UHGV virus genome: UHGV-1727221
Source of the DNA: a virus
Length of the DNA: 14,789 bases
Strand: one strand, 5' to 3'
In this document: positions 9,997-13,474 of the stretch, piece by piece
Layout: each line of letters starts with the position of its first letter
How positions within the stretch are numbered: the stretch's first letter is position 1
Made by a program: the position numbers and the translations under genes
The notes under the pieces: model-generated
Databases searched by the model: none
Told to the model about the DNA's origin: nothing
The model's input: only the letters and a program-made list of their open reading frames with translations

Positions 9997-10395
9997 TTAT
10001 ACTCTATTACTGGAAGCCAGTTGCAGTTTTATCTGCTCAATATCATCAGGATTATCGATGACCGAAAAGCGTATTTCTACTATCAGAGTATAATCATCAT
10101 AAACTGGTATCACATTAACTGCTAATTTATCAATACGTGGCTCATAGTTTCTTACTGCGCTTTCGATATTGCGCTCAACTGTGTCAGCAGTAAGAGGAGT
10201 CATATTTTCAAAAAGCTGGTCTGATAAATCACATCCAAATTCAGGGTCAAACGGTCTTGAACCTTTTCTTGTTGTAATAATTCCCAAAAGACTGTTTTTA
10301 ATTGACCTTAATCCAAGCGATCTGGAAACGTCTTTGTTCCAATCCATTTTCATTTCCGGGTCAATATCAGAATAAAGCTTATTAATATTTGCCAT
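9997..10395 (-). CDS. 25: Baseplate wedge protein gp25 (lysozyme-like fold)
   Basis: 132-aa ORF beginning [29 protein letters not shown]; size and sequence match T4 gp25 as recalled; its ATG overlaps the gene 26 stop (TAATG). Confidence 0.93.
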   Translation of the reverse strand: MANINKLYSDIDPEMKMDWNKDVSRSLGLRSIKNSLLGIITTRKGSRPFDPEFGCDLSDQLFENMTPLTADTVERNIESAVRNYEPRIDKLAVNVIPVYDDYTLIVEIRFSVIDNPDDIEQIKLQLASSNRV

Positions 10396-11021
10396 TATAG
10401 TAACTCAAAGAACTCTTTGAGGCCTCTTATTACGTGAGCATGAGTTTTTCCACACTCTGGACACTTAATTGGAACAGCCAAATAAACGGTAGGCTTTAAA
10501 AGCATATCTTTTATAGCTACAATATCTGACTCTGTGATGATAGAATATAAATCTTCCAGTTCTTTTTCATTTAAGTCTTCAACTGGAATGCTTTCCCCGT
10601 TAGCATGAATCGTTTCTATGCATGATACTATCATGTGGGCTATATTTTTATCATCAAAAATTTTAGGGTATCGGAATTTAATTTTAATGTCACCCAGTGT
10701 ATACCAGAGGTCTTCTGGTGCATCTATTTGTGTATGTAATAGATTTATATGGGTTGGTATTTCAGTTCCACAGGTGCACTTCCAGGAGTTTTCGTGATTA
10801 ACTTCACCGAGAGAATGTGCCCATAAATGAATCAACAATAGTTCTGATTCTTGGCGGTTTAAATCTTTTGCATTTGTGCAGTCTTTGATTAGCTTTTTAA
10901 CAATTACTTCTACGGAACCATTATTTTTGGCAGTAATAAGTTCTAGATATTCTTTAAGCGTGAATGCGCGACAATTGATTATTTTAGAACCAACTCTCAC
11001 ATCAAATTTGTATTCATACAT
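10395..11021 (-). CDS. 26: Baseplate hub protein gp26
   Basis: 208-aa ORF (T4 gp26 is 208 aa as recalled); contains two Cys pairs (CTCG ... CPECG) suggestive of a zinc-ribbon; AAGGAG Shine-Dalgarno upstream on the minus strand. Confidence 0.85.
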
Positions 11022-11042
11022 ATTTAGCTCCTTTATTTATCA

Positions 11043-11054
11043 TATTTATAAATA
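11043..11054. promoter_or_regulatory. Palindromic bidirectional late promoter tatttataaata serving divergent genes 26 (minus) and 51 (plus)
   Basis: Plus-strand TATAAATA at 11047-11054 (gene 51 ATG at 11072, AAGGAG at 11061-11066) overlaps a minus-strand TATAAATA (plus tatttata at 11043-11050; gene 26 ATG at 11021). Confidence 0.55.
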
Positions 11055-11071
11055 GAATAAAAGGAGCATCT

Positions 11072-11821
11072 ATGGCAAACATTATTCGTTGTAAATTACC
11101 AGATGGTGTTCATCGTTTTAAACCATTTACGGTAGAAGATTATCGAGATTTTTTGTTAGTTCGAAACGATATAGAACATCGGTCACCACAAGAACAAAAA
11201 GAAATAATTACTGATTTAATTGATGATTATTTTGGAGACTATCCGAAGACTTGGCAACCATTTATATTTTTGCAGGTATTTGTAGGGTCGATAGGTAAAA
11301 CTAAAGTACCGGTCACATTTGTATGTCCAAAATGTAAAAAAGAAAAGACAGTTCCATTTGAAATATATCAAAAAGAATTAAAGGAACCTGTTTTTGATGT
11401 AGCTAATGTTAAAATTAAATTAAAGTTTCCTTCTGAGTTTTATGAAAATAAAGCAAAGATGATTACTGAAAATATTCATTCTGTTCAAGTAGATGAAATA
11501 TGGTATGATTGGAAGGAAATTAGTGAATCAAGCCAAATAGAACTTGTTGATGCCATCGAGATAGAAACATTAGAAAAAATTCTCGATGCAATGAATCCTA
11601 TTAATTTAACTCTACATATGTCATGCTGTAATAAGTACATTAAAAAATACACTGATATAGTAGACGTGTTTAAGCTATTAGTTAATCCAGATGAGATATT
11701 TACTTTTTATCAAATTAATCACACACTCGTAAAAAGTAATTATAGCTTAAATTCAATAATGAAAATGATTCCTGCTGAACGTGGATTCGTATTAAAACTG
11801 ATTGAGAAGGATAAACAATAA
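11072..11821 (+). CDS. 51: Baseplate hub assembly catalyst gp51
   Basis: 249-aa ORF (T4 gp51 is 249 aa as recalled); Cys pairs CPKC ... CC; its stop overlaps the gene 27 ATG (TAATG at 11819-11823). Confidence 0.85.
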
Positions 11822-12993
11822 TGAGTATGTTGCAACGCCCCGGATATCCAAATCTCAGCGTTAAATTATTTGATAGCTACGACGCTTGGAGTAATAATAG
11901 ATTTGTTGAATTAGCTGCTACTATTACTACATTAACTATGCGGGATTCTCTTTATGGCCGAAATGAAGGAATGCTACAGTTTTATGATTCTAAAAACATC
12001 CATACAAAAATGGATGGAAATGAAATAATTCAGATTTCTGTAGCTAATGCAAATGATATTAATAATGTTAAAACACGAATTTATGGATGTAAGCATTTTT
12101 CCGTGTCAGTAGATTCAAAAGGTGATAACATCATTGCTATTGAATTGGGAACTATTCATTCTATAGAAAATCTTAAATTTGGTAGACCATTTTTCCCTGA
12201 TGCTGGTGAATCTATAAAGGAAATGCTTGGCGTCATTTATCAGGATCGCACATTATTAACTCCAGCAATAAATGCTATAAATGCTTATGTTCCTGATATT
12301 CCATGGACTAGCACATTTGAAAACTATTTGTCATATGTCAGAGAAGTTGCTCTAGCTGTAGGAAGCGACAAATTTGTATTTGTGTGGCAAGACATCATGG
12401 GAGTTAACATGATGGACTATGATATGATGATAAATCAAGAACCATATCCAATGATTGTCGGTGAGCCATCTTTAATAGGTCAATTTGTCCAAGAATTAAA
12501 ATATCCATTAGCATATGATTTCGTTTGGTTGACTAAATCGAATCCTCACAAACGTGACCCAATGAAAAATGCTACTATCTATGCTCATTCATTTTTAGAT
12601 TCTTCATTGCCAATGATTACTACAGGAAAGGGTGAAAACTCTATTGTGGTGTCAAGGTCAGGTGCTTATTCTGAAATGACTTATAGGAATGGATATGAAG
12701 AAGCTATTCGTCTTCAAACTATGGCACAATATGACGGCTATGCTAAATGTTCTACTGTCGGTAATTTTAACTTGACTCCTGGTGTTAAAATTATTTTTAA
12801 TGATAGTAAAAACCAATTTAAAACAGAATTTTACGTTGATGAAGTTATCCATGAATTATCCAATAATAATTCAGTAACTCATCTATATATGTTCACTAAT
12901 GCAACGAAACTGGAAACAATAGACCCAGTTAAGGTTAAAAATGAATTTAAATCTGATACTACCACTGAAGAAAGTAGTTCTTCCAATAAGTAA
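11821..12993 (+). CDS. 27: Baseplate hub protein gp27 (forms the central hub with gp5)
   Basis: 390-aa ORF beginning [23 protein letters not shown]; matches T4 gp27 (about 391 aa as recalled). Confidence 0.93.
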
Positions 12994-13474
12994 TAAAGAA
13001 GTTTCTATTCCTAAAATGGGTCTTAAACATTATAACATTTTAAAAGATGTTAAAGGTCCTGATGAAAATTTAAAACTTCTTATTGATTCTATTTGTCCGA
13101 ATTTATCACCGACAGAAGTTGATTTCGTTTCTATTCATTTATTGGAATTTAATGGAAAGATTAAATCTCGTAAAGAAATAGATGGCTATACTTATGACAT
13201 TAATGATGTTTATGTGTGCCAAAGATTAGAATTTCAATACCAAGGAAATACATTTTATTTTAGACCTCCTGGAAAATTTGAACAATTTTTAACAGTGAGC
13301 GATATGTTATCTAAATGCTTGCTTAAGGTCAACGATGAAGTTAAAGAAATTAATTTTCTTGAGATGCCAGCATTCGTTTTAAAATGGGCAAATGATATTT
13401 TTACAACTTTAGCAATTCCTGGCCCTAATGGTCCAATAACTGGAATTGGCAATATTATTGGATTATTTGAATGA
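12941..13474 (+). CDS. 28: Baseplate hub distal subunit gp28
   Basis: 177-aa ORF (T4 gp28 is 177 aa as recalled) starting in the +1 frame 53 nt before the gene 27 stop; AAGG 6 nt upstream of the ATG; its stop overlaps the gene 29 ATG (ATGA at 13471-13474). Confidence 0.8.

Follow-up and report, generated by a model that had tools for sequence, protein, structure and literature searches.

The 14,789-nucleotide stretch analysed here (the window; virus genome UHGV-1727221) is a Tequatrovirus baseplate region. Its DNA is 99.4% identical to Tequatrovirus records, and 502 phage records match it across at least 80% of its length. T4 records name the genes 25, 26 (with an internal 26′), 51, 27, 28 and 29. 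The ORFs of genes 26 and 51 have the positions given in the initial annotation (Table 1). In the window gp26′ would start at an ATT codon (Ile114, 10680-10682). As T4 records annotate it, gp26′ carries the second Cys knuckle only, so it could not form the four-Cys site described below on its own. The gp28 ORF (12941-13474) overlaps the end of gp27 by 53 nt (12941-12993) in a different frame, and the same overlap is found in the T4 record. Some public records carry unexpected names: one named Pseudomonas phage vB_PSGBLB0006 encodes a gp51 100% identical to that of the window, and NCBI attaches Salmonella enterica and Enterococcus faecalis to identical gp26 clusters, which are probably phage contigs in bacterial assemblies or cases of host mislabelling. 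A gene that the record of Klebsiella phage kp20 annotates as anaerobic ribonucleotide reductase overlies a fragment that matches gp51 residues 1-77.

Table 1. Features of the gene 26/gene 51 locus (positions in the window) and C-terminal extension loci of other phages (locus handle, then positions where given).
Feature	Position	Strand	Basis or remark
132-aa flanking ORF	9997-10395	minus	ORF list
Gene 26 (gp26, 208 aa)	10395-11021	minus	ORF; short paralog, PF12322 core alone
gp26′, in-frame internal product (95 aa)	10395-10682	minus	T4 record annotation; BFVD entry Q8SDG4
gp26 Cys knuckle 2 (C187-P-E-C190)	10452-10463	minus	TGT CCA GAG TGT; predicted turn between strands 179-186 and 193-199
gp26 Cys knuckle 1 (C82-T-C84)	10770-10778	minus	TGC ACC TGT; predicted turn between strands 75-81 and 87-93
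Divergent control region	11022-11071		Two overlapping late promoters flanked by two Shine-Dalgarno sequences
Gene 51, whole ORF (gp51, 249 aa)	11072-11821	plus	ORF; divergent from gene 26, 50-nt spacer
Gene 51 core (gp51 residues 1-204)	11072-11683	plus	PF12322, hhalign, AF2; homologous to gp26
gp51 Cys knuckle 1 (C85-P-K-C88)	11324-11335	plus	Ortholog conservation and AF2 model
gp51 Cys knuckle 2 (C185-C186)	11624-11629	plus	Ortholog conservation and AF2 model
Gene 51 C-terminal extension (residues 205-249 and stop codon)	11684-11821	plus	Three predicted helices; none in gp26
390-aa flanking ORF (gp27)	11821-12993	plus	ORF list
Heptamer/extension loci	L061-L140, L058:6187-6393, L141:4187-4396, L059:5813-5998, L142:4244-4426		Cyanophage-type, KVP40-like and Stenotrophomonas T4-like phages
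Ackermannviridae -1 extensions	L060:5786-5956, L143:2226-2423, L144:2286-2456		Homology to cyanophage extension

The initial annotation had aligned gp26 and gp51 by eye and suggested that they are paralogs. All five of its blocks are recovered both by BLASTP (E 1e-5, 20% identity over 161 aa) and by profile-profile alignment (hhalign, 99.2% probability, E 9.6e-20, 188 columns), which pairs residues 12-208 of gp26 with 10-204 of gp51, a homologous stretch of ~190 residues. The hhalign input consisted of ortholog alignments of 36 gp26 and 37 gp51 sequences, collected by two database searches. The Smith-Waterman score of the pair is 73 versus 35.2 ± 5.9 for 2000 shuffles, none of which scored as high (z = 6.4). 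AF2 models were predicted for both proteins with pLDDT values of 91.9 (gp26) and 91.7 (gp51). In these models the predicted secondary-structure elements follow the same order up to about residue 203, beyond which gp51 is predicted to have three extra helices (208-248). A BFVD search with the gp26 model returned gp51-sized viral proteins at query TM-scores of 0.67-0.72. Since BLASTP, shuffle test, profile-profile comparison, models and BFVD search agree, we regard the homology as real; judged by their sequences, gp26 and gp51 are ancient duplicates, that is, true paralogs. That the resemblance reflects chance or composition, as a pairwise identity of just 20% might suggest, is refuted by the family-model (PF12322, PHROG 150), profile-profile, shuffle and BFVD structure results and deserves practically no credence.

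The paralogy itself is not new, because Pfam PF12322 ('T4_baseplate') and PHROG 150 ('baseplate hub') already group both proteins; whether the relationship is documented, a question raised at the outset, can thus be answered with yes at the database level. PF12322 matches gp26 over its full length (E 8.8e-64, 215.6 bits) and gp51 at residues 1-201 (E 4.3e-55, 187.2 bits), membership being defined by a whole-protein score above the curated gathering threshold of 24.5 bits. The corresponding phrog_150 matches score 240 bits (6.7e-71) for gp26 and 295.7 bits for gp51. The two proteins are full-length, high-scoring members, in other words the family itself, and nothing sets them apart from it; the family description is silent on a metal site, a short/long relationship and frameshifting. 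A sequence search found no solved structure of gp26 or gp51, and no NCBIfam model matches either protein. The idea that gp28 is a third paralog came from a weak phrog_1140 match and the annotation of Acinetobacter phage Abraxas, and was rejected (hhalign probability 6%).

Both proteins contain two Cys pairs, which had been proposed to occupy equivalent positions. Indeed, the pairs align in the gp26/gp51 profile alignment, and all four Cys are conserved across T4-like phages in both families. C82, C187 and C190 are invariant among the gp26 orthologs (n = 36), with C84 present in at least 90%, and C85, C88, C185 and C186 are all invariant among those of gp51 (n = 37). Merging both families (48 sequences) leaves only seven invariant columns (F20, Y25, S70, C82, C84, C187 and C190); four of the seven are Cys, and the four putative ligands are kept in 48/48 sequences across both paralogs. 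An exhaustive profile search (E <= 1e-3) yielded 1717 cluster representatives, the best 144 of which were aligned with the two window proteins. All four Cys are kept in 126 of the 146 rows of this distant alignment; the exceptions are CHCC (three), HCCC, CDCC and a few proteins that apparently lack the whole site. The spacing of the pairs is variable (CxC, CxxC, CC, C-x6-C), and a marine group of distant members has the canonical CxxC...CxxC.

In the AF2 models each Cys pair sits at a predicted β-hairpin turn, and the predicted layout of gp51 is equivalent to that of gp26. The conserved Cys and their positions at hairpin turns suggest a structural Zn(Cys)4 site, which the two pairs most likely form together. 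The modelled pattern further suggests a zinc-ribbon-like build with an insert of ~100 residues. Zinc ribbons (TFIIS C-terminal, Elf1, Rpp21) likewise consist of two β-hairpins with a Cys pair at each turn, and the CxxC...CxxC of distant PF12322 members resembles them. However, the PF12322 knuckles are ~100 residues apart, separated by an inserted α/β domain, the T4 spacings are degenerate (CxC; CC) and every family match lies below threshold (Zn_ribbon_Elf1, E 0.019, 15.5 bits versus a cutoff of 29.8; TFIIS, E 0.066; Rpp21, E 0.036; Tim15, E 0.77). A significant match to a curated zinc-ribbon family or a solved zinc ribbon was looked for and not obtained. Thus, of the zinc-ribbon-like fold put forward in the initial annotation, the hairpin knuckles with conserved Cys are borne out as predictions (AF2, alignments), whereas a link to known zinc-ribbon families is not. 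The widely varying spacings and the sub-threshold matches would also suit Cys pairs that are not a joint metal site at all, that is, two independent features, disulfides or a redox switch. We consider this highly improbable: the four Cys are invariant together in both paralogs, substitutions are to His or Asp or the site is seemingly gone entirely in a few proteins, and the Cys are predicted to sit at hairpin turns in zinc-knuckle fashion. Moreover, folding of gp26 and gp51 takes place in the cytoplasm, a compartment with few structural disulfides.

The distant PF12322 representatives of 228-240 aa are cyanophage proteins. Synechococcus phage S-RIM2 has a single PF12322 gene, followed by a 45-aa ORF ('baseplate hub assembly catalyst') and an 834-aa ORF, and the layout is the same in a KVP40-like Vibrio phage and in Stenotrophomonas phage Ps15. 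The 3′ end of the S-RIM2 core reads GCG AGT TTT TTC GCA TAG and contains T_TTT_TTC as an in-phase heptamer; conceptual translation in the -1 frame gives FFRIALLHTNLRSYYEGNFALMHHHKWNIEHIDNLMPWEKE..., which resembles the C-terminal sequence of gp51. Eighty diverse marine loci and S-RIM2 were taken, of which two lay too near a contig end, leaving 79 analysable loci. An in-phase TTTTTTN heptamer is present in the core ORF at 79/79; it precedes the stop by 6-15 nt in 78 of them and by 33 nt in the remaining one. The -1 frame opens just 7-67 nt ahead of the core stop and stays open for 158-227 nt beyond it, compared with only 7-85 nt for the +1 frame. The codon preceding the heptamer is one for Ser, Asp, Asn, Ala or Phe, invariably with T in third position, and TTT is the first Phe codon at every locus; measured against background usage, this codon choice has a probability of ~0.5 per locus, or ~10^-24 over 78 distinct loci if these are independent. 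RNA structure is enriched directly past the heptamer (mean z -1.67 versus -0.01 in control windows), with 29 windows at z < -2 versus 3 in the control. Two-gene phages keep the Phe-Phe motif, mostly as GAR TTC TTT, and have the heptamer in 0/37 T4-type loci; in the window, the 3′ ends of gp26 and gp51 contain no in-phase heptamer.

Hairpins lie ~5-45 nt downstream of the heptamer in L061-L140 (GGCUCUC...GAGAGCC; GGUCC-AUAU-GGACC; AGUAUGGCUCA...UGAGUCAUACU), and both stem arms encode part of a conserved 'LSH.SL' peptide. A single consensus stimulatory hairpin for covariation counting was sought and abandoned, as the hairpins differ between clades; for this reason only the z-score enrichment is given.

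The peptides encoded in the -1 frame are homologous to the extension of gp51. An HMM of the extension matches 79/79 of them (78 at E < 1e-3, best 1.6e-12). The reverse HMM, built from the -1-frame peptides, matches gp51 orthologs only at ~199-253 and gives no match to gp26, and hhalign relates extension and peptides with 96.8% probability (E 2.6e-10). phrog_634 matches gp51 residues 147-246, and PF28602 (a model not in the Pfam copy used for our search) is listed among precomputed Pfam domains on the C-terminal part of gp51, which suggests that the extension already has a family model of its own. Vibrio phage R10Z, Stenotrophomonas Ps15 and Synechococcus MA01 share the TTTTTTN heptamer and likewise have a homologous extension. 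In three genera of Ackermannviridae, an unannotated but conserved -1 extension of ~55 aa shows homology to that of the cyanophages (E 8e-11 to 2e-6); its junction, NTT TTC AT, is not the canonical heptamer. In public records the extension either appears as an independent gene of 45-62 aa or is missing, and no ribosomal-slippage join is annotated.

Given the in-phase heptamer and a -1 peptide homologous to the gp51 extension, one-gene phages appear to make both a gp26-like short and a gp51-like long form by -1 frameshifting. In this predicted mechanism, ribosomes would slip by -1 at U_UUU_UUN, on the Phe-Phe codons close to where the core ends, and so produce the long form. Alternatively, the small downstream ORF could be translated alone, by re-initiation or coupling, in which case gp51 would be a fusion of two once-separate proteins. 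Public records do annotate the ORF as a 'baseplate hub assembly catalyst' of its own, 31/80 loci have a possible start codon 3-5 codons past the heptamer, and the Ackermannviridae are without the canonical heptamer. We nevertheless find separate translation decidedly unlikely, since the heptamer is in phase at all 79 analysable loci and kept through synonymous choices, and the -1 frame opens so shortly before the stop. Counting Synechococcus MA01, 79/80 loci have no -1-frame start codon at the slippery site or before it. In 28/80 the first possible one lies at least 18 codons downstream, past the conserved block that aligns with gp51, so that in these loci both the conservation and the homology to gp51 begin at the slippery site, ahead of any start codon.

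If one-gene phages frameshift as predicted, the T4 pair would have arisen when gene duplication and in-frame fusion of the extension took over from recoding: gp51 would be the copy in which the extension became fixed in frame, gp26 the copy that lost it. We infer that the frameshift is ancestral and the two-gene state derived, because frameshifting spans Kyanoviridae, Schizotequatrovirus, Menderavirus and probably Ackermannviridae, while two genes are found only in a subset of Straboviridae. In a neighbour-joining tree built to root the duplication, the gp51 clade is supported by 99/100, and the tree gives no clear branching order for the gp26, gp51 and frameshift groups.

The spacer between the two genes contains TATAAATA on both strands, and the overlap makes the palindrome TATTTATAAATA at 11043-11054. 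The flanking Shine-Dalgarno sequences (GCTCCTTT and AAAGGAGC) fall within a 24-nt imperfect inverted repeat. The palindrome is found in 45/54 T4-type divergent loci, and the divergent layout in every sampled two-gene locus of Tevenvirinae-like and Acinetobacter/Aeromonas-type phages. The initial annotation had interpreted this arrangement as an inverted duplication around the palindromic promoter, a proposal that did not hold up: no DNA-level inverted repeat was detected at the locus beyond the promoter/Shine-Dalgarno region, the outgroups have a single PF12322 gene, and the Slopekvirus pair is co-directional. There, 51 and 26 stand in tandem, with the stop of 51 overlapping the start of 26, and the order on one strand is 48, 54, 51, 26, 25, preceded by a large ORF with a coil domain, possibly gp29. 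Since adjacency is conserved and orientation is not, the palindrome most plausibly represents two late promoters (TATAAATA) that overlap rather than a remnant of duplication. The hub gene order of Slopekvirus (L004:3501-5188, Klebsiella phage vB_KM5a1-KLB3; L002) is unlike that of T4, and its gp26 is shorter (184 aa).

Both gp26 and gp51 are listed as 'hub assembly chaperones' (Leiman et al., 2010, Table 2, PMC3004832), and gp51 is required for assembly, yet is not in the particle (PMC3004832). In the expert-style GenBank record of Acinetobacter phage Abraxas, the name 'tape measure protein assembly chaperone' is given to gp26, gp51 and gp28. The chaperone label is therefore not new, since published work and at least one GenBank annotation already use it. 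Most likely, gp26 and gp51 act as non-virion assembly chaperones for the hub and the tape-measure protein gp29. Phage lambda reportedly produces its G/GT tail assembly chaperones by a -1 frameshift. To our knowledge, this tail-chaperone frameshift is otherwise near-universal, and T4 is without it. As the single-gene relatives would make short and long forms by frameshifting, we suggest that the T4 pair does the G/GT job, with gp26 as the short chaperone and gp51 as the long one, whose extension would act as the T domain. On this model the core would bind gp29 and the extension a tube or hub protein, much as lambda T binds gpV.

The likeness to lambda gpG/gpG-T has several elements. Short and long forms have a common N-terminal body to which the long form adds a small C-terminal domain, they would be assembly factors that the tail requires but the virion does not contain, the gene lies within the hub/tape-measure cluster, and the one-gene relatives have an in-phase X_XXY_YYZ heptamer just ahead of the short-form stop. 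In contrast to lambda, the T4 forms are separate, divergent paralogs (20% identical) made without a frameshift and not from one mRNA, the PF12322 core, with its 4-Cys site, is roughly double gpG in size, and T4 genes 27 and 28 stand between 51 and the tape-measure gene. In Pfam, gp26 and gp51 have no sequence match to tail assembly chaperone (TAC) families. Fold likeness to solved TACs is modest and seen with the gp26 model only; the structure search with the gp51 AF2 model gave no TAC matches, and a TAC-like fold of gp26, predicted from its model, is for that reason merely suggestive. The T4 order is 51-27-28-29, and gp29 carries PF25671 (T4_Tape_measure). In one-gene phages an ORF of 650-935 aa lies directly downstream, for which a tape-measure role is weakly supported by sequence: a weak tape-measure match was found in the Vibrio phage only (phrog_58, E 5.8e-6), comparison with T4 gp29-type tape measures gave no Pfam matches and a non-significant BLASTP result, and in cyanophages the ORF belongs to large PHROG families labelled 'endolysin'.

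The paralogs might instead have diverged to unrelated functions, with gp26 a structural subunit of the hub and gp51 a catalytic factor in its assembly, and the likeness to G/GT would then be superficial. We think this unlikely, given that Table 2 of PMC3004832 has both proteins as chaperones and that at least three further lineages recreate the short/long pair from a single gene by predicted frameshifting, which argues that both forms act in one process. We favour, as fairly probable, the reading in which gp26 and gp51 are paralogs with a joint Zn(Cys)4 site that serve as G/GT-equivalent chaperones for the hub and gp29, the frameshift having been replaced by duplication in the T4 lineage. To the more extended proposal we lean only slightly: that in T4-like and Vi1-like myoviruses (Kyanoviridae, Schizotequatrovirus, Menderavirus and probably Ackermannviridae) a conserved, unannotated U_UUU_UUN -1 frameshift yields both forms, and that the duplicates which replaced it in the T4 lineage are T4's missing G/GT pair. 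In the full-text literature searched, neither the paralogy nor the four-Cys site, nor the short/long equivalence, nor the frameshift is described; an earlier mention elsewhere is possible.

The paralogy is ordinary and catalogued, and its interest lies in the context that it opens. The long product is probably mis-annotated or overlooked in hundreds of cyanophage, Vibrio-phage and Vi1-like phage records; a ribosomal-slippage join likely belongs where these show a 45-62 aa ORF called 'baseplate hub assembly catalyst' or simply a gap. If true, our reading would identify the missing G/GT tail-assembly-chaperone pair of T4, supply a reason why gp51 acts 'catalytically' and provide a clean natural case of a programmed frameshift replaced through gene duplication.
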